This document shows positions 10,601 through 24,671 of a stretch of 64,000 nucleotides of DNA, one piece after another; position 1 is the stretch's first letter, and each line of letters opens with the position of its first letter. The stretch lies in assembly GCA_038222225.1 (NCBI GenBank), contig JBBRHV010000007.1, positions 27 to 64,026 of the forward strand. The letters run 5' to 3'. The position numbers were made by a program, and so were the translations under genes. Origin of the DNA: Candidatus Omnitrophota bacterium. Its GTDB lineage: Bacteria; Omnitrophota; Gorgyraeia; Zapsychrales; JANLHA01. The notes beneath the pieces were generated by a model. It had not been told where the DNA came from, did no database searches, and was given only the letters and a program-made list of their open reading frames with translations.

Positions 10601-11674
10601 TTACACGATCTGTTCTGCGAACTGCAGAACCTGTTGAACGCTTAATTGTTTCAAGCAATGACGATGCTCACAGCTTGCCACTCGAGACCGTCGATAACAC
10701 GGCCGACAAAAAATTGAAGACGTCGCAACGACCTGCCCGTTTACCGGATACGGCCCATAGACGCGCTGGTCTACCGGTCCAAAAATCGATAAGGTCTGCG
10801 CTCCGGCAGCCACGGCCATATGCAACGGCCCGCCGTCATTGGTCACAACGCAACGGCATTGCGCAAAAAGCGCGGCGCTTTGTCCTAAGGTCGTTTGACC
10901 GGTGATATTGAACACCTTTCCCTGAAGCCGCTCTTCGATTCCTTGCGCCAGCTCCTGCTCCGCAACGCTTCCTACCAGTATAATTTGAGCTTTAAATTTT
11001 TCAACGAATTTATGCGCCAATTCCGCAAAATAGGCGGCCGGCCAGCGTTTTAAATCCGCCTCGCCCCCCCAGGACGCCCCTCCTCCGGGAACAAAGGCAA
11101 ACGCCGTTTGGCCCTGGATCCGATGCTCTTGAAAAAAATCTTTGGCCCAGCGGCGTTCATCCTCCGTCAAAGGAAAAACCATCGGCTTAGGCTCCGGTTC
11201 AATGCCTAAGAATTTTAAAAGATCCAGATAATGTTCCACCACATGTTTACCGCTAAAGCCCTTAAGCGGGATCTTCTGTGTCAAAAACCGCCCCCGTCCT
11301 TTAAAATCAAATCCGACCCGCTCAGGAATTCCGGCCAAGGACATGAACAGGCCCGACTGGCTGTTCAGCGACAGATCAATAACGCAATCGTATTTTTTCC
11401 CGCGGATATCTTCGATGAACTGAACGGCCTTCCTCCAAAATCCGATCTTAGAACGCCGATAGGCCTCTTTGAATTCATCCCGCTCATATACAAACACATC
11501 CGAAATATCCTGATGGTGACGCATGATCTCAGCGGTGCGGGCATTGGCAATAAACCCGATCTGACATTGCGGCATAGCCTGTTTGAGATTCGCGATCAAA
11601 GGCGTGGTGAACAGCACATCCCCGATGCCGAATGTGTTGATGATCAAAATATTCTGATATTGCTTGATGGACAT
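10601..11674 (-). CDS. GT9 family heptosyltransferase (ADP-heptose:LPS heptosyltransferase, RfaF/RfaC-like).
   Basis: Motifs NTFGIGDVLFTTP, FVPGGGASWGGEADLKRWP and TNDGGPLHMAVAAGAQTLSIFGP are typical of GT9. Confidence 0.8.
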   Translation of the reverse strand: MSIKQYQNILIINTFGIGDVLFTTPLIANLKQAMPQCQIGFIANARTAEIMRHHQDISDVFVYERDEFKEAYRRSKIGFWRKAVQFIEDIRGKKYDCVIDLSLNSQSGLFMSLAGIPERVGFDFKGRGRFLTQKIPLKGFSGKHVVEHYLDLLKFLGIEPEPKPMVFPLTEDERRWAKDFFQEHRIQGQTAFAFVPGGGASWGGEADLKRWPAAYFAELAHKFVEKFKAQIILVGSVAEQELAQGIEERLQGKVFNITGQTTLGQSAALFAQCRCVVTNDGGPLHMAVAAGAQTLSIFGPVDQRVYGPYPVNGQVVATSSIFCRPCYRRSRVASCEHRHCLKQLSVQQVLQFAEQIV

Positions 11675-11679
11675 TCGAA

Positions 11680-12471
11680 TCAGTTTCCTTCTTTAACCGA
11701 ACGCAGCAGATTATAATAACCGGAAAGCTTCAAAGCAAAATTGAACGGAATATCCAGGTCATTATTTTTAACTTTCACTCTCTTCAATGCAAAAAGATCC
11801 GTGTTCAACCGCTGAGCCCCCCGGTTCGTCGTAAAGGCCCCCCGATACCCGGCCTCCCGCGCAACGGCCTTGGCCTGTTCTGTGAATCCCCCGACCGGAT
11901 AACATAAAAACCGCACGGCCAGACCCAGATGTTCATCGAGGTCTTGTTTTGAACCGAAGATCTCATCCCGCAGCTGCGCCTCACTTAGATCCGGCAGATA
12001 GGCATGGGTCCGGGTATGGCTGCCGAATGAGATCCCTCCGGCGGCCATCTCCTGGGCCTGCGGCCATGACAAAAGATGCTTGTCCTTATAAACGCTATCC
12101 ATCTTTTGGGTCTGAATAAAAATCGTGACCGGAACCGCGTATTTTTTAAAAATCGGAAATCCCTCCGTATAATTGTCCTCGGTCCCGTCATCAAAGGTGA
12201 TCGCGACCGTTTTAGACGGAAACCCTTTTCCGTTCTCAATGCCGTGGGCCAATTCTTCCAACGAGATCACTTGATAATGGCGCTCTTTTAAATACGCCAT
12301 TTGCCGTTCAAAATGACCGGCTGAAACATACAAAGACCCTTGCCCATCGCCGAGGTAATGATACATCAGGACCGGAACCGTATAGCGGGGCCGAAGCCAT
12401 GCCTGATAAAATGCTCCCAGCCCAACGGCGATCAGCGTGATCGCGATCAAAAACGAACGTGATTTTCTCAT
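11680..12471 (-). CDS. Polysaccharide deacetylase (CE4 / NodB-homology) with an N-terminal TM anchor.
   Basis: The NodB motifs VPVLMYHYL and ITFDDGTEDNY are present. Confidence 0.75.
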   Translation of the reverse strand: MRKSRSFLIAITLIAVGLGAFYQAWLRPRYTVPVLMYHYLGDGQGSLYVSAGHFERQMAYLKERHYQVISLEELAHGIENGKGFPSKTVAITFDDGTEDNYTEGFPIFKKYAVPVTIFIQTQKMDSVYKDKHLLSWPQAQEMAAGGISFGSHTRTHAYLPDLSEAQLRDEIFGSKQDLDEHLGLAVRFLCYPVGGFTEQAKAVAREAGYRGAFTTNRGAQRLNTDLFALKRVKVKNNDLDIPFNFALKLSGYYNLLRSVKEGN

Positions 12472-12483
12472 CGAAGCAAACCC

Positions 12484-13650
12484 TTACAGATGTGTTTCCA
12501 GAAATTTCCCGACTGTCTCTGCGACATACTCCAGCTGAGGCAGTTCAATGTCCTGATGAATGCCGATATGCGTGCCGTGATCAGAACAGTATTCCGCTTC
12601 CGGAAAATCACCGAGTTGATGGCCGAGAAACGCATAGCTGGGGCATTGGGTCGGCATCGAATAAAAAAGGTTGCGGGAATCAACGCCCTGACCGTCCAAA
12701 TAACGGACGAACTGTTCTTTGGTGAATTTCAGGCCGGGCTTTAAAATGATCGAAAACGCGTGCGGTCCGATCTTTTCTCCTTCTTCTTCACGAATATAAA
12801 TAAAATATTCCTCGAACTTTTTGAACCGTTCGATCAGATACAATAAGTTGCGGCGGCGTTTTTCAAAGATCTGATGAAAGATATGGATGTTGCCTAAACC
12901 GACCGCGGCCTCGATCTCATTCATCTTGGAGGAAAACCCGATGCGCTTAAAATCAAATTTGTTCACCATCCCATGATTGCGCAACGACCTTAGCGCCTCT
13001 GCCTTCTGCGGGTCGTCGGTGATGACCATTCCTCCTTCAATGCTGGTAATGATGTGCGCCGCATACAGACTGAAGGCCGCCATATCTCCGATGGTTCCGG
13101 CTAAGCGGCCATGGTATTCTGCTCCGTGGGCTTCGGCCGTATCTTCAACGACCAACAGATGCTGCTTTCTTGCGATCGCCATGATCGCGTCCATCGCGGC
13201 AGGTTTCCCCATCAGATGAACCGGCATAATGGCGCGCGTGCGCTCCGTGATCGCGGCCTCAATTTTTTCAGGATCGATATTGAGCGTCTCGCGTTTGACA
13301 TCCACAAAGACCGGCGTCAGTCCGGCCTGAAAAACCGCATTACCGGTCGCGACAAACGATAACGCCGGAACGATCACCTCATCGCCGCGCCGAGCGCCGT
13401 AATCATAAACAACGGCCAGCGCCAGGGCGTCGGCATCGGTGCCACTGGAAACCGCAACCGCCTCCTTGACCTTAAACAGATCCGCAAAAGCCCGCTCGAA
13501 TTCACGCACGATCTTGCCGTTGGTGACAAAGGTTTCATCCAACGCGTTCTTGATCAGCGCTCGCGCTTCGTCGGTGATTGAAACTGTCCCGAAGGGAACC
13601 TTGTAGCCCGCCTTCGTTTCCACACTTTGATTGGCACGCGCGTCTTTCAT
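12484..13650 (-). CDS. DegT-family enzyme with the PLP lysine replaced by histidine (FSLYAAHIITSIEGG). It is predicted to be a ColD/E1-like PMP-dependent NDP-4-keto-6-deoxy-sugar 3-dehydratase rather than an aminotransferase.
   Basis: Aligned against the paralogue at 9482-10585, Lys in FSFYPTK aligns with His in FSLYAAH. The Lys-to-His change is the known signature of ColD and AscC-type 3-dehydratases. The protein has few Cys, so it is not an Fe-S E1 type. Confidence 0.7.
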   Translation of the reverse strand: MKDARANQSVETKAGYKVPFGTVSITDEARALIKNALDETFVTNGKIVREFERAFADLFKVKEAVAVSSGTDADALALAVVYDYGARRGDEVIVPALSFVATGNAVFQAGLTPVFVDVKRETLNIDPEKIEAAITERTRAIMPVHLMGKPAAMDAIMAIARKQHLLVVEDTAEAHGAEYHGRLAGTIGDMAAFSLYAAHIITSIEGGMVITDDPQKAEALRSLRNHGMVNKFDFKRIGFSSKMNEIEAAVGLGNIHIFHQIFEKRRRNLLYLIERFKKFEEYFIYIREEEGEKIGPHAFSIILKPGLKFTKEQFVRYLDGQGVDSRNLFYSMPTQCPSYAFLGHQLGDFPEAEYCSDHGTHIGIHQDIELPQLEYVAETVGKFLETHL

Positions 13651-14369
13651 GGCTGATCATCCTTTCGAAATTCCTGCCGCGCCTGCTGCAGGCGGTCAGG
13701 AGTGCCGATATCTAAAAATCCCGATTCAACCGGATAGGCGAACACCCCACTGTCTAAAATCTTTGGAAAAAACTGCGTTTCAACAGAAAACTTCTCCTCC
13801 GCCGGCATCAGCTCAAAAGCCCGCGGCTCAAAACAATATAGACCGACGCTGACAAATCCTGTGGTTAACGTTTTTTCTTTTTCGCGGAAAGAAACCACCC
13901 GCTGCTTTGCGTCAAATTCAACTGTGCCGTAATCCTGCGCGTCTTCTCTCGAACAGACCGCCAAGGTAACGATGCCCTTTTGGGAATCATGAAAGCGCAG
14001 CATATCAGCGATCGGTATATCAAAAAGGCAATCGCCGTTCATGATGATCCATTTCTTGGCCTGAGCGAATGATTGCGCGAACTTGATCGCGCCGCCCGTG
14101 CCTAACGGATACGGCTCGCGGGAAATCTCAATCTCCAATCCAAAGTCATGCTGACGCGCCACCTGCTCGATCTGTTCGGCGCCGAAGCCGGCGGCCAACA
14201 CCACATGCCTGGCCCCCTGGCGTTTTAAGCGTTCCAGCTGGATCGCCAAAAAAGGGCGGCCGCCGATGTCGACCGCAACTTTCTGCTTTTCTCCGATCGT
14301 CGAACGCAGCCGCGTGCCCAGCCCCCCGCACAAGATCAGCACATCAATATCTAAGACGTCTGTCGGCAT
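13647..14369 (-). CDS. hddC: Sugar-phosphate nucleotidyltransferase, HddC-like (D-glycero-alpha-D-manno-heptose-1-phosphate guanylyltransferase family).
   Basis: The motif LILCGGLGTRLRS (G-x-G-T-R) and a GlmU-N-like fold are present. It directly abuts the GHMP kinase. Confidence 0.65.
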   Translation of the reverse strand: MPTDVLDIDVLILCGGLGTRLRSTIGEKQKVAVDIGGRPFLAIQLERLKRQGARHVVLAAGFGAEQIEQVARQHDFGLEIEISREPYPLGTGGAIKFAQSFAQAKKWIIMNGDCLFDIPIADMLRFHDSQKGIVTLAVCSREDAQDYGTVEFDAKQRVVSFREKEKTLTTGFVSVGLYCFEPRAFELMPAEEKFSVETQFFPKILDSGVFAYPVESGFLDIGTPDRLQQARQEFRKDDQP

Positions 14370-15368
14370 CTAAACCACTTTCCCGGTATTGGGTTGATAA
14401 AAAATGATCTGCGACCCCGCATCCTCAAACTTGATCGGCACCTGCAAATATTTCTTGAGCGCCTGGCGCACCTGCGGCTGACGCTCCGGCGGAACGAAGA
14501 GAAGCACAAACCCTCCTCCGCCTGCGCCCAGCAGTTTCCCGCCTAAGGCCCCATTTTTCATCGCGGCTTCATACATGGCATCAATTTCAGGAGTGGCGAT
14601 CTTATCAGACAGCGACTTTTTCAGTTTCCAGCTTTCATCCAAAAGACGCCCAAAATCATTCAGCTCTCCATGATTAAGAATTTCCAGCGATTGAACAGCC
14701 ATCTCATACATCGTTTGCAATTCGGCTGTTCGGGCAGGAATATTACGAATTTGATGCTCGGCAATTTTAGAAGCCAGGCGCGAAAATCCGGTAAAAAATA
14801 TCATCAGATGATCCTGCAGGTTCTGGATCTTTTCTTTTCCAACAGTGACCTGCCTGACCTTCAAATGATTGTCGCCGCCGAATTCAATAAAATTAAAACC
14901 TCCGTGAGCGACCAGCGTCTGATCCTGACAACCGACAATATCCTTGCAAAGGTCCTGCTCAATATGAATGGCCTCGCGCGCCAACTGATCTTTGGTCGGC
15001 ATCGTGCCCAGAAGGGCATATAAAGAGTTGAGCAGTCCCACCGTGAAAGAAGAGCTGGAGCCCAATCCTGTGCGCGCCGGAAGGTCCCCGTCATGATGGA
15101 TCTCGATCCCCTCCTGAATCTTCAAGAACCGCAAAACCTCGCGCACGGCCGGATGGTCAATGTCGTCAATCGCCTGGACAAGTTCGATCTGTGAATACAT
15201 GATCCGTGATTTATGTTCAAAAAACGGCGGCAGGTAGCGGCAGGTGATATAACAATATTTATCGATGGTGGTGGCCAGAACCGCCCCTTTGTGATCTTGG
15301 AACCAATCCGGATAATCCGTTCCTCCACCGAAAAATGACACCCGAAATGGCGTGCGGCTAATAATCAT
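14370..15368 (-). CDS. hddA: GHMP kinase, HddA-like (D-glycero-alpha-D-manno-heptose 7-phosphate kinase).
   Basis: The N-terminus MIISRTPFRVSFFGGGTDYP is characteristic of heptose-7-P kinases. The GHMP ATP motif GLGSSSS is present. Confidence 0.65.
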   Translation of the reverse strand: MIISRTPFRVSFFGGGTDYPDWFQDHKGAVLATTIDKYCYITCRYLPPFFEHKSRIMYSQIELVQAIDDIDHPAVREVLRFLKIQEGIEIHHDGDLPARTGLGSSSSFTVGLLNSLYALLGTMPTKDQLAREAIHIEQDLCKDIVGCQDQTLVAHGGFNFIEFGGDNHLKVRQVTVGKEKIQNLQDHLMIFFTGFSRLASKIAEHQIRNIPARTAELQTMYEMAVQSLEILNHGELNDFGRLLDESWKLKKSLSDKIATPEIDAMYEAAMKNGALGGKLLGAGGGGFVLLFVPPERQPQVRQALKKYLQVPIKFEDAGSQIIFYQPNTGKVV

Positions 15369-16869
15369 ATCCTGCCTCCTCTAAAATCCTTCGTTTGAGT
15401 TTGATCTGAGTCGAACGCAATGTTTCATCCACGGCCAGCTGCCCGAATTTTTCTTTGAGCATCCCCAAAAATTTCGGATTCGTATGATAGATCATCCAGG
15501 CTTTGTCCCGAAACGCCAGAACCTCCTCGGCGCTCAGATGTTTGGTCGGCAACGGCTGCGCGTCATACGAATGCTGTGAAAATCCGGCATAGCTCCGGGG
15601 GAGTTTCCACCCTTCACGGATGGCCAAGCCATACAGCGGGCTTCCCGGATAAGCCATCGCGCAATAAAAATTCGCCATTTCTGTGTTTAACCTCATGGCC
15701 AGGTCCAGCGTCTCCTGCATACTCTGCCGATCATCTTCCGGCAGCCCAAAAATATAATTGGCGGCGACCGATATTCCGCTATTCCGGATCATCCGGACAA
15801 CGTCCTCGATGTCCACCTCTTCAAAGCGCCCCTTGGCGACACTGCGGCGGACGCGTGTATTTCCGCTTTCAATGCCCAGGGACAAAAAATTGATCCCGGC
15901 CCGTTTCATGATGTCCAAATATTCACCGCGGATCATATCCACCCGGGCGTAACACCAGATGTTGAAATCATATCCGCGCTCAATGATCAGTTCGCACAAT
16001 TTTAAAAAATGCTCTTTTTTAAAAACAAAAAGTTCATCGGCAATTTTGATATTCCTGATTCCCATTTTGGCGAAACGCTCGAAATCCCGGATAATGAATT
16101 CCGGGTCCCAGTGACGGAAAACCGCGCTTCCGTCCGAATAGATGTTTTCCTGACGGTTGATGATGTTGATCATACAGAACGAGCACTTCATGGGACACCC
16201 TAAACTCGTATAGATCGAAACAAACGGCTCACGCACACAGTCATTGGGGAGCGCGTGCCACAACGCCGTGCGGTAACGCTCCATCGGCAAAAGGTCCCAA
16301 GCCACGCCGGGCAGCTCACGCTCCAAATCCTGCTGCGCAACGATGGCAGACGGCGAATTAAGGATCATGCGCTCGCCGTCCCTCCAGCCTAAACCGCGGA
16401 CCTCCCCAAGGCTTAAAGAGAGGTCGGTTGCCAAAAGAGCGGAGATCGTATACACGCCCTCGTTTTGGCAGACAAAATCAATGCACCCGTGCTTCTCCAA
16501 GGTTTCATACGGTAAAGCCGCCACATGCGCGCCCACAAAAAGAATTTTTTGATCCAAAGCAGCGGAGCGCAATTTCTCCGCCAGGCGCAACGCGCCTTCC
16601 ATATTCTGCGTGGAAGCGCTGGGATGCTGCCCGTAAATCACAAAGGCCGCCAATCGAGGACGCGCTTCCATGATCCGCTGAATCGCTTCTTCGTCGCTTA
16701 GCTGCAGTGCTTCAGTATCCAGAATGTTTGTGACGAAGCCGTGCAAACGGACATGACCGGCAAGCATCCCGGCCCAAAGCGGCGGTTCGATCGCTGAATA
16801 GGCCTTATTTAAATCCTGATAAATAATTTCAGCGGCATTCGCATGTATGAAAAGAATATCTAACGGCAT
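15358..16869 (-). CDS. B12-binding radical SAM enzyme (class B rSAM; candidate C-methyltransferase or sugar-modifying rSAM).
   Basis: An N-terminal B12-binding domain is followed by the radical SAM core with CPMKCSFC (CX3CX2C). It is the first gene after intergenic repeat island 1. Confidence 0.75.
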   Translation of the reverse strand: MPLDILFIHANAAEIIYQDLNKAYSAIEPPLWAGMLAGHVRLHGFVTNILDTEALQLSDEEAIQRIMEARPRLAAFVIYGQHPSASTQNMEGALRLAEKLRSAALDQKILFVGAHVAALPYETLEKHGCIDFVCQNEGVYTISALLATDLSLSLGEVRGLGWRDGERMILNSPSAIVAQQDLERELPGVAWDLLPMERYRTALWHALPNDCVREPFVSIYTSLGCPMKCSFCMINIINRQENIYSDGSAVFRHWDPEFIIRDFERFAKMGIRNIKIADELFVFKKEHFLKLCELIIERGYDFNIWCYARVDMIRGEYLDIMKRAGINFLSLGIESGNTRVRRSVAKGRFEEVDIEDVVRMIRNSGISVAANYIFGLPEDDRQSMQETLDLAMRLNTEMANFYCAMAYPGSPLYGLAIREGWKLPRSYAGFSQHSYDAQPLPTKHLSAEEVLAFRDKAWMIYHTNPKFLGMLKEKFGQLAVDETLRSTQIKLKRRILEEAGYDY

Positions 16870-17063: not shown

Positions 17064-17996
17064 TTATATATTCGCATACTGACTGCGCTTAATAATCTTA
17101 TACGCCTTGATCAATTCCGCAATGCCGGCCTGCAGCGAATGGTCCGGCTTAAATCCAGCAGCCTCGATCTTCGCGTTGGAAACAATATAATCCCGTTTGT
17201 CCGGATCTTCGTTGATGTCTGACTCAACAAAATAAAAATCCGGGATCACTTTTTTGATCTCTTCGCAAAGCTGCCACTTGCTTAAATTGGCGTCACTCAA
17301 ACCGACGTTATACGCTTCATTTTTCATCGCGTCAAAATGGTTCAGCCCATAAGAAAAAGCCTTGGCGACGTCGCGCACATGAATAAAATTCCGGCGGAAT
17401 TTCGCTTCAAAAATAACCAGGTAACGGTCATAGACAGCCCGGTAGGTAAAATCATTCACTAAAAGGTCCAGTCGCATGCGCGGGCTGACCCCAAACGCCG
17501 TTGCCAACCGCAATGTGATGGCGTTTCCGTCTTGAAGAATAGATTCTTCCGCCTCAACTTTCAGCTGACCATATAATGAGACCGGCCTCAATGGCGTCTG
17601 CTCCGTGCAAAGTTTGTCTCTCTCTCCTATGCCATAACCGCTATTGGTCGTTGGATAAATAATGATCTGGTTTTTACTGCGCAGTTTTAAGATCATCTGT
17701 ACTGCGCCAACGATCACGCCGCGCGCAGCATCCGGATCGGTCGCGCACAAAGGCGCCCCTGTTAGGCACGCCAGAGGAAAGACCGCGTCGGCCGTCTTCA
17801 TCAGGCGCTGCATCAACGAAGAATCCCTGGCATCTCCCCGCACAATATCCAAGTTGGGATTCACGCAGCAATCCAGCAACGAGCTCTGCTTATACATAAA
17901 ATTATCCACAACCGTAACGGTGTGGCCTTCCTCAAGAAAACGGGGAACCAGAACCGAACCAATATAACCGGCCCCGCCGGTGATCAAGATTTTCAT
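17064..17996 (-). CDS. NAD-dependent epimerase/dehydratase (extended SDR) with an intact GGAGYIGS, catalytic Ser and YGQLK.
   Basis: The Rossmann motif MKILITGGAGYIGS is present. TNSGYG and YGQLK form the S/YxxxK triad. Confidence 0.8.
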   Translation of the reverse strand: MKILITGGAGYIGSVLVPRFLEEGHTVTVVDNFMYKQSSLLDCCVNPNLDIVRGDARDSSLMQRLMKTADAVFPLACLTGAPLCATDPDAARGVIVGAVQMILKLRSKNQIIIYPTTNSGYGIGERDKLCTEQTPLRPVSLYGQLKVEAEESILQDGNAITLRLATAFGVSPRMRLDLLVNDFTYRAVYDRYLVIFEAKFRRNFIHVRDVAKAFSYGLNHFDAMKNEAYNVGLSDANLSKWQLCEEIKKVIPDFYFVESDINEDPDKRDYIVSNAKIEAAGFKPDHSLQAGIAELIKAYKIIKRSQYANI

Positions 17997-18928
17997 ATCA
18001 AAAGTCCTTTTTTAAGTGCTGCCTCCCAAAGACGGACCAGGCCTTCGCGCAGCACAGTCTTGGCCATCCATCCCCTCGTCTGTATCGGGCTGACCTCCAG
18101 CAATCTCTGGAAATCTTCATCCTGGATTTTTTCGTCATATTCGATCGTTCCTTCGAATCCGGAAATATCCCGGATCATTTCCGCTAAATCCCGGGTCGCA
18201 ATATCCACCCCGGATCCAATGTTGATCGGCTCCGCCTCCTCGTAGTGACGCATTAAAAACTCACAGGCACTGGCGAAATCCTCTGAGAACAAAAATTCCC
18301 TGCGGATATCAGGATTTTTTAAAACACGGACCTTCTCCCGTCGGTCAGCCGCCGCCTGAATAAAAAGCTCAACCAGATCAGACAAAAAACCACTTTGATC
18401 ATCACCCTCTTCTTTGCGCGGACCATAAATAGACGGCGCAATGGCAACCACCGCATTAAAGCGATACTGCAGACGGTAAGCCTCACACATCGCGATTCCG
18501 GCGATCTGACTGATCGCGCTGGATTGACTCTGTGGATCCAACGGTCCGGTGACAACATAATCTTCTCTCATCGGCTGAGGGCATTGGCGGGGATACACAT
18601 CAGAGTCCGCCAGATAAAGCAGCTTTTTTGAGCCTAAACGATAGGCCGCATCTATGATCTGCGTCTGGCTCATCATGTTCATAAGAAAATATTCTGCCGG
18701 ACGATGCGGCGGCTTAGCCGTGTCTTGAGAAGCCAACGAATCCAAGATCACGTACTCCGGCTGATAATCCTTAAAAAAATCATCCACGGCCTGGCGGTTT
18801 AACGTGTCCAGATCAACCGCCCCTGCCGTTAACAGGCGCCGATAACCTTCGGCTTCGAAATATTCAATGATCGCCTGTTCTTTAGCCTCCTGATGTCCGG
18901 CAATGAAAATAGTGGCTTCATGATCCAT
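17993..18928 (-). CDS. GDP-L-fucose synthase (Fcl/GMER) homologue with a degenerate active site. It lacks the GxxGxxG, the Ser/Tyr/Lys triad and the Cys. It is a probable pseudoenzyme or non-catalytic partner.
   Basis: It aligns with E. coli Fcl along its whole length (IFIAGH, AVDDFF, FLMNMMSQTQIIDAA, QPMRED, QIAGIAMCEAYRLQY, NIGSGVDIATRDLAEMI, RLLEVSPIQTRGW). However GHRGMVGSA is replaced by GHQEAKEQA, LGSSC by LADSD, and PYAIAK by SSAISQ. It has a 4-nt overlap with the downstream SDR gene. Confidence 0.7.
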   Translation of the reverse strand: MDHEATIFIAGHQEAKEQAIIEYFEAEGYRRLLTAGAVDLDTLNRQAVDDFFKDYQPEYVILDSLASQDTAKPPHRPAEYFLMNMMSQTQIIDAAYRLGSKKLLYLADSDVYPRQCPQPMREDYVVTGPLDPQSQSSAISQIAGIAMCEAYRLQYRFNAVVAIAPSIYGPRKEEGDDQSGFLSDLVELFIQAAADRREKVRVLKNPDIRREFLFSEDFASACEFLMRHYEEAEPINIGSGVDIATRDLAEMIRDISGFEGTIEYDEKIQDEDFQRLLEVSPIQTRGWMAKTVLREGLVRLWEAALKKGLLI

Positions 18929-18932
18929 ATTC

Positions 18933-19988
18933 TTAACTCACCTTTTTTGTTCTAATCACCTCTAAGACCGCTTCTTTAATATCTTTCGCGCCCAGATAAA
19001 ACGCCTGTTCCAGCGTATAGCCCGCCGGTGTTGGAAGATCCGGCAGCGCGACCCGTTTGGGCGCGCATGTCAGATCATGAAAAGCGCGTTCGGTCACCTG
19101 GGCAATGACCTCAGCCGCGAACCCGCCGGTTGTCCAGGCCAGATCCGCCACAATCAGCCGTCCGGTTTTTTTAACCGAAGCCAAGATCGTTTCGATATCC
19201 AATGGTCGGATCGTTCTGGGATCGATCACCTCGACTTCAATTCCGTCAGCAGCCAGTTCATCCGCCGCCCGCAACGATTCGATCACCATATGCGAAACCG
19301 CCACAATCGTCACATCACTCCCTTCGCGCTTCACCGCGGCTTCTCCAAACGGGATCGCGTACATATGTTCAGGAACGCAGCTTTGATGTTTATACAGCCA
19401 TCGGTGTTCAAAAAATAAAACTGGATTGTTATCAGCAACACCGGAAATAAACAGTCCTTTGGCATCATAAGCCGTCGCTGGAAGAGCGATCTTTAGACCG
19501 GGAACATGGTGAAACAAGCCGTGCAGGGCTTGGGAATGCTGCGCGGCAGACCCCCATCCTCTGCATACACAGGCACGGATCATGACAGGCAACGGCACTT
19601 GCCCGGCAAACATATAACTCCATTTTGCGGCGTGATTCACGATCTGATCCATGGCCATCAAAAGAAAGTCTGGGCGGTTGTGAATCACAATCGGCCGCAT
19701 GCCGGCCATGGCCGCCCCCAAAGCAATACCGATGGCAGCCTCTTCGTTTAACGGCGTATCAAAAACCCGCTCTAACCCGTATTTCTTGAACAACCCCGTT
19801 GTGGTACCGAACATCCCCTGAGGATCATTGATTCCCTGCCCCATCGCAAACACCCGCGGATCATACTCCAGCGACTGATCGAGCGCCTCAAACAACGCCT
19901 TTTCAAAATCCAGCTTACGCGCGTTATCCCCGGCGTTCTCATCGAATTCAGGCTCTTCACTCTCAACTTGTAGTTTTGTCCAAGGCAT
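18933..19988 (-). CDS. TPP-dependent dehydrogenase E1 component beta subunit (transketolase-like C-terminal/pyrimidine-binding).
   Basis: The motifs DPRVFAMGQGINDPQGMFGTTTGLFKKYG...RVFDTPLNEEAAIGIALGAAMAGMRPI are typical of E1beta. Confidence 0.8.
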   Translation of the reverse strand: MPWTKLQVESEEPEFDENAGDNARKLDFEKALFEALDQSLEYDPRVFAMGQGINDPQGMFGTTTGLFKKYGLERVFDTPLNEEAAIGIALGAAMAGMRPIVIHNRPDFLLMAMDQIVNHAAKWSYMFAGQVPLPVMIRACVCRGWGSAAQHSQALHGLFHHVPGLKIALPATAYDAKGLFISGVADNNPVLFFEHRWLYKHQSCVPEHMYAIPFGEAAVKREGSDVTIVAVSHMVIESLRAADELAADGIEVEVIDPRTIRPLDIETILASVKKTGRLIVADLAWTTGGFAAEVIAQVTERAFHDLTCAPKRVALPDLPTPAGYTLEQAFYLGAKDIKEAVLEVIRTKKVS

Positions 19989-20008: not shown

Positions 20009-21013
20009 CTATTCAACAAACAGATATTTCGTAAGATCGCGCGCATCAGGCAAAGGGCTGTTTTGCGCGAACACGAACGCCTCTCCGACATCCCGATCAA
20101 CTCGCGTTCTGATCTCTTGAACGCGGCTTGAATCAAGAAGCCCTTCCTTTAGAACGTGTGCAATAAACTCTTCGATCGGATCCCTCCGATACCCTTTTGT
20201 AAATTCCTCCGGCATTCGATACAATTGCGCACTCGCGTCCCCCGGTCCGACATGCATCCTCCATCGCTGAACAACATATTCCAAAACAAACGGACCCTTG
20301 CCTGAACGCGCGTGGCTGACGGCCTGAGCGGCTGAGGCATACACATCCAGCGGATTCATCCCGTCAACACGGCATGACGGGATATCAAAAGCCCGTGCGC
20401 GCTTGTATAAATATTCGTTGGCCTCCCGGACCGAAAGGTGGGAATTGACCGAATAGAAATTGTTTTCGATCACAAAAACGACCGGCACTTTTTTAAGCGC
20501 AGCCCAGCCCATGCTTTCATAAAAAACACCCTGCTGGCATGCCCCGTCGCCGAGAAAAACAACGGCGATCGAATCTTTCTTCTGCATCTGAAATGCCAAT
20601 GCGGCTCCCACCGCATGCGGTGTGGCTCCCGCGACAATGGCTGAAGAGCCCCAATGACCGACCTCTTTAGCGACCAAGTGCATCGAGCCGCCGCGCCCGC
20701 TCGAACAGCCGGTTTCGCGACAGTAGAGCTCTGCGATCATCGCGCCTAAGTTCCCGCCCTTCGCCAAATAATGAGCGTGGCTGCGATGATTGCTGAAGAC
20801 CGCATCCTCTGTTCTTAAATGCATACACACGCCGGCTGAAACCGCTTCCTCACCCAAACTCAAATGGACCGGGGTCTTCATCTCATCCAAGTGATAAAGT
20901 TCTTCAATCTTGAGCTCCGTGACCCGGATCAGCAGCATCTTTCGCAAAAATTCAGCGGTCTGCTCGCCAGTCAGGTTCGGTACGGAAAACTGTGCGCAAT
21001 CGTTTTTGGCCAT
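20009..21013 (-). CDS. TPP-dependent dehydrogenase E1 component alpha subunit.
   Basis: The TPP motif GDGA...x27...ENN is present (VFLGDGACQQG...VIENNFYS). The start is taken at the internal Met (MAKNDC) 2 nt after the upstream stop. No E2 or E3 lies nearby. Confidence 0.8.
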   Translation of the reverse strand: MAKNDCAQFSVPNLTGEQTAEFLRKMLLIRVTELKIEELYHLDEMKTPVHLSLGEEAVSAGVCMHLRTEDAVFSNHRSHAHYLAKGGNLGAMIAELYCRETGCSSGRGGSMHLVAKEVGHWGSSAIVAGATPHAVGAALAFQMQKKDSIAVVFLGDGACQQGVFYESMGWAALKKVPVVFVIENNFYSVNSHLSVREANEYLYKRARAFDIPSCRVDGMNPLDVYASAAQAVSHARSGKGPFVLEYVVQRWRMHVGPGDASAQLYRMPEEFTKGYRRDPIEEFIAHVLKEGLLDSSRVQEIRTRVDRDVGEAFVFAQNSPLPDARDLTKYLFVE

Positions 21014-21015
21014 CT

Positions 21016-21966
21016 CTAAAAACACCCTTTCTCCTGAAACCATGTAATGGTCTCACGCAATCCTTCTTGCAACGGCACCATCGGCTCCCACTTCAGCAGG
21101 CGTTTGGCAAGCGAAATGTCCGGACGCCGTCGTTTCGGATCATCCGTCGGAAGCGGTTCGAACTTCATTTCACTTTTTGAGCCCGAAAGCTTTAACACAA
21201 GCTTGGCAAACTGGATCATGGTAAATTCCATCGGATTGCCGATATTGACCGGACCGACATAATCTGAACGCAACAATCTATAAATTCCCTCGATCAGGTC
21301 ATAGTAATAACAGAATGACCGCGTTTGCCGCCCTGATCCGTAAACGGTCAAGGGCTTCCCATGCAGCGCCTGATAAATAAAATTAGGAACAACACGACCG
21401 TCGTCAATGCGCATCCGCGGCCCGTAGGTATTAAAGATCCGCACAATACGGACATCGACCTTATGATAACGGTGATAGGCCAGCGTGATCGCTTCGGCAA
21501 ACCGCTTGGCTTCATCATAAACCCCGCGCGGGCCCGTCGGATTAACATGGCCCCAATAGGTTTCCTTCTGCGGATGTTCCAAAGGATCCCCATACACCTC
21601 CGAGGTCGAGGCTAAAAGAAAACGCGCCTTTTTGCCTTTTGCCAGTCCCAAAGCATTGTGCGTTCCCAACGACCCCACCTTAAGCGTCTGGATCGGATAC
21701 ATCAGATAATCGACCGGGCTTGCGGGAGAGGCGAAATGCAGCACATGATCCACCGGCGCTGAGATTTTGATCGGCTTGGAAATGTCATGCTTGATAAATT
21801 CAAAATATTTCTGTTTCTTCAGATGAGCAATATTTTTCAGGCTTCCGGTGATCAAATTATCAATACAGAACACCCGGTGCCCTTCTGACAAAAGAAGGTC
21901 GCATAAATGGCTCCCCAAAAATCCCGCTCCTCCTGTGATCACGGCATGTCTTTTACGTCCCATCAC
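21016..21966 (-). CDS. UDP-glucuronate decarboxylase (UDP-xylose synthase-like) SDR.
   Basis: Motifs [18 protein letters not shown] and [23 protein letters not shown] are highly characteristic of UXS/ArnA-decarboxylase enzymes. Confidence 0.8.
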
Positions 21967-21974
21967 TCTTCTCC

Positions 21975-23279
21975 TTATAAACGAACCACTTTTACGTTAC
22001 GGCTGGATTTGTACACATTGCGGGTATCAAAGATCAGCTGCGCGTGCTTGAGCACCGCCGGATAATTCACGCGGGAATGATCCGTCGCGATCACAACGCA
22101 ATCGTACTGCCGTAACGTTTTCGGTGAAAGTTTGACCGACTCCTTTTGATGAATATTGAAGATCTCCAAATACGGGATCAGCGGATCAAAGTAATCCACT
22201 CTCGCCGCCTGCTCCTGAAAGAGCCCGATCAGATTCAACGGCGGAGACTTGCGCAAATCCCGCACATCTTTTTTATAGGTAACCCCCATGACCAGGATCC
22301 TGGACTCCTTCAATGTCTTTCCTCTGTCCTGAAGAACTTGCGCAATGCGCCCGACGACATAAGCCGGCATCTGCGCGTTGGTATCGGCCGAGAGCTTAAT
22401 GTATTTTGAATCAAATCCATAGCGCCGCGCCTTCCAATATAAATAGAGCGGGTCATCCGGAATACAATGACCTCCGACGCCAAGCCCGGGATAAAAAGGC
22501 ATAAAGCCGAACGGTTTTGTTTTGGCGGCTTCAATGACTTCCCAAATATCGATCCCCATCTTTTCGCACATCATGGCCACTTCATTGATCCACCCGATAT
22601 TGATGATCCGAAACGAATTCTCCAGCAATTTGGTCATCTCCGCCGCGTCCGCGGAAGAAACCACATGAATGACTTTGATGATCTTGGAATACAGCTCTTT
22701 GGTTAAGGCGGTGCTCTTGGCATCCAGGCCGCCAACGACTTTCGGAATACGCGTGACATCATACGTCTTGTTGCCCGGATCAATGCGCTCCGGCGAAAAC
22801 GCCAGAAAGAAATCTTTCCCTGCTTTCAGCCCGGACTTTTCCAATTCCGGCCGAATCATTTCCCGTGTGGTGCCCGGATAGGTCGTACTCTCCAGCACAA
22901 CCAGAACGTCCCGCTTTAAATATTTCCGAAGCGTCCTGACCGCGCCCATGATGAACGAAACATCCGGCGTATATTTGCTTTTTAAAGGAGTCGGCACGCA
23001 GATGATCACGACATCCGTTTCCGCCAAATGTTCAAAATCCGTGGATGCCGAAAGATGGCCGCTGCGCACAACACTCGCCAGTTCCTTCTGCGGAATATCG
23101 GCGATATAACTTTTATGCGCTGAAACTCTGTTGACACGATCCTCATCCGTATCCAGCCCATAGACCTTAAATCCCACTTTCGCGAAATTGACGGCCAACG
23201 GCAATCCGACATACCCTAAGCCCAGGACAGAAATAACCGCCTTTTTCGTTCTAAGCTTTCTTAAAAGCTGCGTGCTCAT
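21975..23279 (-). CDS. NDP-sugar dehydrogenase (UDP-N-acetyl-hexosamine/mannosamine dehydrogenase, WecC/TviB-like).
   Basis: The UDPG_MGDP_dh family N-terminus [16 protein letters not shown] is present. The start is taken at the Met of MSTQLL, ahead of the Rossmann motif. Confidence 0.8.
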
Positions 23280-23298
23280 CCCTCCGCCCTCCCTTTCT

Positions 23299-24639
23299 CT
23301 AAACAGACCCCTTCGCGCCGTTCTGGCCGCGGCCGATCCCATAATATTCGAACCCCAACCGTTCCAGATTTTGATGGCTATAAAAATTCCGCCCATCAAA
23401 AAGAATCGGCTGTTTCATTAATTTCACGATCCGCGCGAAATCCAAGCGGCTGAATTCCTCCCATTCGGTTAACAGCACCAGACAATCGCACCCTTTAACC
23501 ATCGTGTAGACATCTTTAGAATAAACCACCTTTTTCAAAACCTTTTTCGCGTTCTCCATAGCCTGCGGATCATACACCCGGACCTGGGCCCCTTCGGCCA
23601 AAAACATCTGAATAATGTCCGTCGACGGAGCTTGACGCATATCATCCGTGTCCGGCTTAAAAGCCAGCCCCAGCACCCCGATCGTCTTGCCTTTCAGAAT
23701 CCACAGTTTATCCTCGATCAAATGCACAAAAGCTTTTTTCTGCGCCTCATTGATATTACGGACTTCTTTCAATAATTCAAATTCATAACCGCTGCGCTGA
23801 CTTAAACGGATAAAAGCATCCACGTCCTTTGGGAAACAGCTCCCGCCATAACCGACCCCGGCGTTGAGAAAGGCCCGGCCGATCCGCTTGTCATGCCCCA
23901 TGCCTTCGGCGACTTTGAGCACATCCGCCCCGACCCGGTCGCAGATTTGCGCGAGGGCGTTGGCAAATGAGATCTTTGTGGCCAAAAATGAATTGGAGGC
24001 GTGTTTGATGATCTCCGCCGAATTGATATTGGTCACCACCATTTTCGGTTTCAACGGCTTATAAATTTCCCGCAATAATTCCTCGGCGCGCTTGGACTCT
24101 ACGCCGACCACCACCCGATCCGGCTTCATAAAATCTTCAATGGCCGAACCCTCCCTCAAAAATTCGGGATTCGAAGCCACATCAAAGACAATGGCCTGCT
24201 TTGCGCCTTTACGGTGTTTCTGCGGAAGATTGAGCATGATCGTGCGCTTGACTCTCTGGCCGGTCTCCGCCGGAACCGTGGACTTTTCAACGATCAGCTT
24301 ATAGCAATCCATGTTTTCGGCGATCTGTCGGGCCACATTCTCAACATAGGTCAGATCCGCATCGCCGTTCTTCTTGGAAGGTGTTCCGACCGCGATAAAG
24401 ATCACGTCCGATTTTTGTGTGGCCTGACGGATAGAGGTGGTAAACGTCAGCCGCTTCTTCTTGCACAAATGCGCCATCATGTCTGCAAGGCCGGGCTCAT
24501 AAATCGGACATACGCCCTGATTCAGGCCTTTGATCTTTTTCTCATCGTTGTCAATACAGATCACCTGGTGGCCGATCTCCGCCAAACACACGCCGGTAAC
24601 CAACCCTACATATCCTGCGCCGATCACTGCTATATTCAT
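23299..24639 (-). CDS. ugd: UDP-glucose 6-dehydrogenase.
   Basis: The N-terminus MNIAVIGAGYVGLVTGVCLAEIGHQV and IYEPGL are present, as is the catalytic Cys region GGSCFPKD. Confidence 0.8.
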   Translation of the reverse strand: MNIAVIGAGYVGLVTGVCLAEIGHQVICIDNDEKKIKGLNQGVCPIYEPGLADMMAHLCKKKRLTFTTSIRQATQKSDVIFIAVGTPSKKNGDADLTYVENVARQIAENMDCYKLIVEKSTVPAETGQRVKRTIMLNLPQKHRKGAKQAIVFDVASNPEFLREGSAIEDFMKPDRVVVGVESKRAEELLREIYKPLKPKMVVTNINSAEIIKHASNSFLATKISFANALAQICDRVGADVLKVAEGMGHDKRIGRAFLNAGVGYGGSCFPKDVDAFIRLSQRSGYEFELLKEVRNINEAQKKAFVHLIEDKLWILKGKTIGVLGLAFKPDTDDMRQAPSTDIIQMFLAEGAQVRVYDPQAMENAKKVLKKVVYSKDVYTMVKGCDCLVLLTEWEEFSRLDFARIVKLMKQPILFDGRNFYSHQNLERLGFEYYGIGRGQNGAKGSV

Positions 24640-24671
24640 ACACCCCATCCTTTCGGTCGAAAATCGATGCT

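Follow-up and report, generated by a model that had tools for sequence, protein, structure and literature searches.

A His-type DegT-family protein from a putative GDP-heptose operon of Omnitrophota: a candidate PMP-dependent, iron-sulfur-independent sugar deoxygenase of a separate subfamily

A stretch of 64,000 nucleotides from a Candidatus Omnitrophota bacterium (GenBank assembly GCA_038222225.1, contig JBBRHV010000007.1, positions 27 to 64,026; the whole stretch is called the window) carries on its minus strand, at 12484..13650, the gene for a 388-residue protein of the DegT family in which His stands at the position of the Schiff-base Lys. This protein, termed His-DegT here, is best read from its sequence as a pyridoxamine 5′-phosphate (PMP)-dependent, iron-sulfur-independent deoxygenase of the His type, which would work in the manner of the 3-dehydratase ColD and belongs to a separate subfamily. 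In the favoured form of this reading, to which a probability of about 0.55 was assigned, His-DegT would be a C3-dehydratase with the ColD mechanism that yields GDP-3-deoxy-4-keto-heptose, which would be elaborated further, possibly to a branched sugar of the yersiniose kind. An original prediction, made from the letters of the window, had described a ColD-type enzyme leading to a GDP-linked 3,6-dideoxy-hexose or -heptose; the enzyme type was partly upheld and the product had to be revised.

The Pfam family PF01041 (DegT_DnrJ_EryC1) matched His-DegT end to end (residues 25-380, E 1.6e-98), and its AlphaFold 2 (AF2) model (pLDDT 91.9) gave template modelling (TM) scores of 0.82-0.89 against solved DegT enzymes. 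The top NCBIfam match, RfbH, scored 242 bits and did not reach its cutoff of 423. The active-site motif FSLYAAHIITSIEGG, located in the open reading frame (ORF) at 13030..13074 (minus strand), includes Ser194, Ala198 and His199; the codon at 13054..13056 (minus strand), at the Schiff-base Lys position, encodes His199. In the HMMER alignment, the catalytic Lys of the Caulobacter GDP-perosamine synthase (Per), which lies in FSFFGNKIITTGEGG, pairs with His199. A MAFFT alignment, for which the ColD, E1 and Per sequences were transcribed from the HMMER output, placed ColD His188 and E1 His220 (numbering checked) in the same column. The other DegT gene in this operon (9482-10585, minus strand), with which the first had been said to align well, is 33% identical to it and shows CFSFYPTKNLGAFGDG, with its Lys at the place of His199. 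No substitute Lys for the Schiff base that is general to the His-DegT clade was found in the alignments, and the His noted at the Schiff-base Lys site was confirmed as real.

In DegT enzymes, the pyridine nitrogen is contacted by an Asp and the phosphate by a Ser and a Gly-Thr pair, and an aromatic residue stacks on the cofactor. The cofactor-binding positions of His-DegT (G70-T71, F99, D170, E173 and S194) are retained; H199, D170, E173, S194, G70 and T71 are invariant columns of the family alignment (A1), and D170, S194, G70-T71 and F99 are invariant also in all three DegT groups described below. The protein contains only two Cys (C336 and C355), and the Cys-rich [2Fe-2S] insertion of E1 is not present in it, as judged from the MAFFT alignment and the loop lengths; the earlier remark that there are too few Cys for an E1-type enzyme was thus borne out. 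C336 is invariant in the His-DegT family and C355 is found in at least 90% of its members; other DegT groups have Gln, His or hydrophobic residues at these sites.

The sequence SLYAAHI[IV] was kept in all 120 best database homologues (70-88% identity), of which those with a named source are Omnitrophota metagenome-assembled genomes (MAGs), and the His recurs throughout the genomic family, to identities as low as 40%. The genomic tier beyond the family (35-41% identity) is perosamine-synthase-like and carries GNK. By this conservation the gene is under strong purifying selection, and neither decay of an aminotransferase nor an error of sequencing explains the His; in public annotations it goes under the name of an aminotransferase.

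Relatives of His-DegT were collected with HMMER, run exhaustively over 1.84 billion cluster representatives (50%-identity clusters). His stands in 93 and Lys in 52 of the 146 nearest clusters in which the site is covered; all 52 Lys-type neighbours carry Lys and all members of the opposing clade His, without exception. A neighbour-joining (NJ) tree of 135 sequences, taken from the 150 nearest cluster representatives only, resolved three groups: the Lys types, with Per and the second DegT protein of the operon among them, a ColD/E1 clade (n=13) and a large His clade (n=77 of the 90 His-type sequences), inside which the query family falls. After removal of the catalytic column (200 bootstrap replicates), this NJ tree separated the Lys types from all His types at 90%; the ColD/E1 clade, with the query outside, was recovered at 99%, and the query family at about 100%. 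In the columns with the clearest distinction between Lys types and the large His clade, the query, with L111, M147, A198, H361 and G363, has mostly ColD/E1-like residues. At position 111 the His types have Leu and the Lys types Ala (87%), at 147 Met or Leu versus Tyr or Phe, at 198 Ala or Ser versus Asn, Thr or Ser, at 361 an aromatic residue or His versus Ser or Asn, and at 363 Gly versus Pro (98%). Because of the Lys/His split and these signature columns, His-DegT is assigned to the His-type lineage of the known 3-dehydratases, and its sequence argues against a separate Lys-to-His change in a perosamine-synthase-like enzyme.

No solved structure falling in the large His clade was present among the HMMER and Foldseek matches. 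Two His-type cluster representatives (P0136 and P0197) are interrupted by intein splicing domains, and the His-type DegT domains of P0124, P0125, P0202, P0214, P0216 and P0194 are fused to a glycosyltransferase of family GT2 or GT4, a methyltransferase or a short-chain dehydrogenase/reductase (SDR); P0124 and P0125, both DegT-GT2 fusions, are among the representatives closest to the query family. Distant His-type relatives from Coatesbacteria (40-46% identity) adjoin GT2 and GT4 genes only and do not inform the chemistry.

His at this site is the defining feature of the His-type PMP-dependent dehydratases, and the characterised His-type members are all 3-dehydratases (PMC8987622). ColD (WbdK, GDP-4-keto-6-deoxy-D-mannose 3-dehydratase, PDB 2GMS/3GR9) shares with His-DegT the fold-type I DegT architecture, the His at the Schiff-base site, a Glu at the E173 position, the absence of a Cys motif for an iron-sulfur cluster, the His-type signature residues at 111, 147, 198 and 363, and a GDP-sugar context. 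The two differ in that they are 29% identical (167 bits) and belong to separate clades; the ColD substrate comes from GDP-mannose 4,6-dehydratase (GMD), whereas that of His-DegT is likely to come from a C4-dehydrogenase, and, unlike ColD, His-DegT sits in a module with thiamine diphosphate (TPP)-dependent and radical S-adenosylmethionine (SAM) enzymes. The S187N/H188K variant of ColD gains aminotransferase activity. In E1 (AscC/DdhC/RfbH, CDP-6-deoxy-L-threo-D-glycero-4-hexulose 3-dehydrase, PDB 3BCX), which is PMP-dependent, His220 corresponds to His199 and Ala precedes both. In yersiniose biosynthesis E1 acts before YerE: E1-type 3-deoxygenation comes first, followed by TPP-dependent branching at C4. 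E1 and SpnQ hold a [2Fe-2S] cluster in a Cys-rich insertion after RxWG and need a reductase, whereas His-DegT, with its two Cys, lacks such an insertion. Because the iron-sulfur motif is missing, an E1/E3-type mechanism was rejected for His-DegT, and the sequence indirectly supports a ColD-like mechanism. In favour of the original prediction, His-DegT is grouped with ColD/E1 by the 90% split; membership of the ColD family was not supported.

The C. jejuni HS:5 C3-dehydratase (GDP-6-deoxy-4-keto-heptose 3-dehydratase) uses 4-keto substrates derived from GDP-heptose, with pyridoxal 5′-phosphate (PLP) and L-glutamate (PMC10440746, PMC10680097). The heptose C3-dehydratases of C. jejuni are ColD orthologues, 62-67% identical to ColD. 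The HS:5 enzyme naturally acts after a 4,6-dehydratase, whereas His-DegT, of another subfamily, is naturally paired with a homologue of Cj1427. By using Cj1427, which requires 2-oxoglutarate, together with the ColD-type HS:5 enzyme, which requires PLP and glutamate, Raushel and co-workers produced GDP-3-deoxy-4-keto-heptose in vitro; this 3-deoxy-4-keto-heptose was presented among novel GDP-heptose modifications (PMC10680097).

For the genomic comparison, 80 loci were fetched, and counts were made on the 32 of them in which each flank reaches at least 8 kb. The His-DegT family (51-74% identity) was found in Omnitrophota, Nitrospirota, Elusimicrobiota, Planctomycetota (Brocadiia, Phycisphaerae), Desulfobacterota, KSB1, Eisenbacteria and others. 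Its gene is accompanied by a module whose order is shuffled from locus to locus: a GHMP kinase (31/32), a two-subunit TPP enzyme (30/32), a nucleotidyltransferase (28/32), a B12-binding radical SAM enzyme (28/32) and a Cj1427-like SDR (26/32). In four of the 32 loci the last of these is replaced by a GMD-like, 4,6-dehydratase-like SDR (L027:6515-7507, L049:3106-4098, L051:2130-3116 and L043:6516-7535); the two types never occur in one locus, and two loci have neither, so that an SDR of the expected 4-keto-forming type is present in 30/32. Of the contextual arguments for a C4 ketone as the target of His-DegT, this either/or distribution of two SDR types that form GDP-4-keto-heptoses in Campylobacter is the strongest. 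The exchange parallels that of DmhA and Cj1427 in Campylobacter, and it predicts 3,6-dideoxy and 3-deoxy variants of the product.

In the operon of the window, all on the minus strand, His-DegT is preceded by the HddC-like sugar-1-phosphate guanylyltransferase gene (13647..14369), the TGA stop of which overlaps the His-DegT ATG in the sequence ATGA. Its top solved matches are HddC and then mannose-1-phosphate guanylyltransferases, in agreement with the GDP linkage predicted before. The HddA-like GHMP kinase (heptose-7-phosphate kinase-like; 14370..15368) has heptose-7-phosphate kinases of the WcbL/HddA type as its top solved matches; the NCBIfam scores for HddA and HddC lie under their cutoffs. 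The Cj1427-like SDR (17064..17996) matches PDB 6VO6 with 404 bits and 58% identity. This entry we take to be Cj1427; a published Cj1427 primer encodes RAFKMMKV, and the 6VO6 chain carries this peptide at its C-terminus. By these matches the operon appears to carry the Campylobacter-type GDP-heptose set of HddA- and HddC-like enzymes and a Cj1427-type C4-dehydrogenase. By analogy, the Cj1427-type dehydrogenase as the conserved keto-forming partner would retain the 6-OH, and a hexose substrate for His-DegT is unlikely; the hexose product proposed earlier is unsupported in an operon whose conserved partners point to GDP-heptose.

The TPP enzyme is encoded in the window by E1 beta-like (18933..19988) and E1 alpha-like (20009..21043) subunit genes, both assigned from database matches. 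Its forms are interchangeable among the loci: full E1 alpha/beta, a "mini" pair of about 205 + 178 residues, and a split transketolase (examples at L005:3917-5102, L006:3568-4819 and L028:2797-4727). The mini pair comprises the PP and Pyr domains only; its 178-residue subunit is without a Pfam match and was assigned by a profile match to the E1 beta N-terminal domain (E 1e-18). The B12-binding radical SAM enzyme (15358..16869) has AprD4, a radical SAM diol dehydratase, as its best solved match (74 bits) and HpnJ as its best NCBIfam match, both weak; it is possibly a C-methyltransferase or an AprD4-like diol dehydratase acting on the heptose side chain. These TPP and radical SAM partners, absent from the original prediction, imply a more elaborate product. 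A GDP-L-fucose-synthase-like (Fcl-like) reductase, possibly with epimerase activity, is encoded at 17993..18928 (database matches).

In the scheme that we infer for the substrate, the regiochemistry and all later steps, C4 of the GDP-heptose would be oxidised by the Cj1427-like SDR and His-DegT would form the PMP ketimine at C4. Following the mechanism described for ColD (PMC8987622), His199 would remove the C4′ proton and aid expulsion of the 3-OH; hydrolysis would then give GDP-3-deoxy-4-keto-D-glycero-heptose and ammonia. PMP would be restored from PLP by L-glutamate with release of 2-oxoglutarate, which is the co-substrate consumed by the Cj1427-type dehydrogenase, and the two steps would thus be metabolically coupled. 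The two-subunit TPP enzyme would probably place a C2 branch on C4, as in yersiniose, and the Fcl-like reductase and the B12-radical-SAM enzyme would also act on the 3-deoxy-4-keto sugar. The near-universal presence of the TPP enzyme in the loci suggests that a C2 unit is added at C4 after deoxygenation. By analogy with YerE, acetyl branching of 4-keto sugars was proposed for the pyruvate-dehydrogenase-like TPP heterodimer EvdU5/EvdS3 (PMC10338323). Alternatively, the TPP enzyme could supply sedoheptulose-7-phosphate. In the Omnitrophota lineage, the product would probably be transferred by an enzyme of the GT9 heptosyltransferase family; the candidate for the modified heptose is encoded at 10601..11674 (minus strand; Pfam/NCBIfam; 11/32 loci).

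Several observations weigh against a ColD-like 3-dehydratase acting on GDP-4-keto-heptose. The large His clade was recovered with a bootstrap of only 67%, and a tree built by NJ only, with limited sampling, is a caveat on the Lys/His split. Where ColD has S-H-H with its HH doublet, His-DegT has AHI, and the GxNxR motif is altered, Asn being replaced by Ser240 and Arg by Lys242. The insertion after RxHG comprises 29 residues in ColD and 10 in His-DegT (between the G227 and G238 equivalents); it measures 27-41 residues in the ColD/E1 clade, and across the large His clade its median is 13. The best sequence match is Per (PDB 3BN1/3DR4; 220 bits, 35% identity), which stands among the top two by structure as well (TM 0.87): Foldseek searches with the AF2 model gave the aminotransferases 7B0M and 3BN1/3DR4 first (TM 0.87-0.88), E1 30th and ColD 41st. 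In the large His clade, certain relatives carry a fused glycosyltransferase or are directly followed by one, an arrangement not expected of an enzyme that releases a 4-keto intermediate. Lastly, GmhA and GmhB were sought across the window and not found; GmhA-like SIS and GmhB-like HAD genes are present in some loci of the family.

Transamination of the SpnQ kind and PMP chemistry at another carbonyl are the main rivals to deoxygenation at C3, kept alive by the aminotransferase-like loops, the glycosyltransferase fusions and the fact that the clade is known from sequence only. A His-type C4 aminotransferase would use PMP to turn GDP-4-keto-heptose into GDP-4-amino-4-deoxy-heptose. The nearest solved sequences and folds are those of aminotransferases, chiefly Per, with which His-DegT shares equal loop lengths, the EDxAEA motif and the lack of the ColD/E1 insertion; a late-pathway enzyme would fit the glycosyltransferase-fused relatives, and the His-type SpnQ transaminates with PLP and glutamate when its reductase is absent, although ColD and E1 gave no transamination in SpnQ-like conditions (PMC8987622). 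Per itself, however, has Asn185, the catalytic Lys186, and Ala, Tyr and Pro at positions 111, 147 and 363, whereas the signature residues of His-DegT match ColD/E1. The invariant Lys (52/52) set against an invariant His argues for different chemistry and not a neutral swap. Moreover, no N-acyl- or N-methyltransferase gene belonging to the conserved module was found in the 32 full-flank loci, and the operon already holds a canonical Lys-type DegT protein. Transamination at C4 was judged improbable on balance.

An equally small chance was given to a PMP-dependent elimination, or another vitamin B6 reaction, at a different site or step, for example deoxygenation beside a ketone in an acetyl branch installed by the TPP enzyme, with loss of the tertiary C4-OH, or action on an intermediate generated by the radical SAM enzyme. 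The constant company of TPP and B12-radical-SAM enzymes, a set that known ColD/E1 pathways lack, would be accounted for in this way; the AprD4-like radical SAM enzyme, if a diol-dehydratase, would create a new carbonyl, and the subfamily is distinct from ColD/E1. Such a reaction is, however, without precedent, a C4-keto substrate explains the either/or pattern of the SDRs most simply, and the yersiniose precedent puts 3-deoxygenation ahead of TPP branching (PMC10338323). A bolder and similarly doubtful proposal is that His-DegT forms the B6 part of a new route, built on GDP-heptose and comprising the Cj1427-like dehydrogenase, the TPP enzyme, the B12-radical-SAM enzyme and His-DegT, to a C-branched deoxy sugar, namely a nonose or larger sugar derived from a 3-deoxy-4-C-branched heptose. 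His-DegT would then perform unprecedented B6 chemistry, such as removal of a tertiary hydroxyl beside an acyl branch installed by the TPP enzyme or a reaction on a carbonyl made by the radical SAM enzyme. If this is true, Omnitrophota, Elusimicrobiota, Nitrospirota, Planctomycetota and Desulfobacterota would have the product as a common sugar of their envelopes.

That His-DegT is a true ColD orthologue, leading to a GDP-3,6-dideoxy-hexose of the colitose type or a GDP-3,6-dideoxy-heptose, is far less probable still and already largely refuted by phylogeny and gene content. The His at the Lys site, the absent iron-sulfur motif and the GDP context agree with it, and the four loci with a GMD-like SDR would yield a 3,6-dideoxy sugar there. 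ColD orthology was rejected, however, by the tree, in which His-DegT lies outside the ColD/E1 clade, by the missing insertion and by the identity of 29%, against 62-67% for the real C. jejuni heptose C3-dehydratases. The operon contains no GDP-mannose pathway genes and no 4,6-dehydratase: its sole 4,6-dehydratase-like SDR (21016..21966, minus strand), tried as the source of a 3,6-dideoxy product, was rejected in that role as a UDP-glucuronate decarboxylase of the UXS type (378 bits to human UXS1), and the operon, whose Cj1427-type partner would keep the 6-OH, lends no support to the 3,6-dideoxy product first proposed. A catalytically dead, degenerate aminotransferase paralogue or an E1-type enzyme requiring an external reductase is just as remote: the catalytic Lys is gone and the public annotation is aminotransferase, yet 70-88% identity over many MAGs with an invariant His and cofactor-binding residues speaks against decay, both Cys lie off the E1 cluster-insertion position, and the conserved module of the 32 full-flank loci yielded no E3-like reductase.

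Few His-type B6 sugar dehydratases have been studied so far (ColD, E1, SpnQ and the C. jejuni orthologues). His-DegT represents a far larger and very diverse His-type clade without a solved or characterised member in the sources searched; literature searches found neither a characterised member nor a paper on the clade or the module. Because databases call members of this clade aminotransferases, many annotations are probably wrong. The module of heptose activation, C4 oxidation, His-DegT, TPP enzyme and B12-radical-SAM enzyme spans many uncultivated phyla; it may be a natural source of 3-deoxy-4-keto-heptose. It predicts a natural 3-deoxy-heptose, a type of sugar so far obtained only in vitro from combined Campylobacter enzymes, and probably a new branched-chain sugar of the cell envelope.

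In minus-strand order, the operon starts with genes for a UDP-glucose dehydrogenase, a second NDP-sugar dehydrogenase and the UDP-glucuronate decarboxylase, and it ends after His-DegT with those for a polysaccharide deacetylase, the GT9 enzyme, the Lys-type DegT protein and a GT2 glycosyltransferase. The polysaccharide deacetylase-family gene (11680..12471, minus strand; Pfam/NCBIfam) lies 12 nt downstream of the His-DegT stop; the canonical Lys-type aminotransferase paralogue (9482..10585, minus strand) was assigned by Pfam/NCBIfam and by alignment, with FSFYPTKNLGAFGDGG. The genes at 21016-24648 (minus strand) at the operon head constitute a UDP-xylose/4-keto-pentose branch, which among the fetched loci occurs almost only at ≥66% identity, mostly in Omnitrophota MAGs; the TPP enzyme could alternatively use a 4-keto-pentose as its acceptor, in line with the proposal made for eurekanate. 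For the second dehydrogenase (21975-23399, minus strand), the TTG start as listed gives an overlap of about 100 nt with the upstream gene and places the first residue of the Pfam domain at 56; a true start further downstream is probable.

The glycan operon is directly followed on its downstream side, at 7788-8525 (minus strand), by an IS200/Y1 transposase-like ORF, whose score of 80 bits equals the NCBIfam cutoff of 80 for the REP-associated tyrosine transposase; the same gene stands after the operon in contig L001. The ORF beside it (6682-7569, minus strand; 295 residues) contains an SpvB domain (Pfam, 94 bits) and resembles a fragmentary toxin-complex or SpvB-like protein. GC skew is below zero in all 2-kb bins of 1-64000 (cumulative -5.1) and nearly all long ORFs are on the minus strand, which suggests that the window lies within one replichore, with its genes co-oriented with replication.

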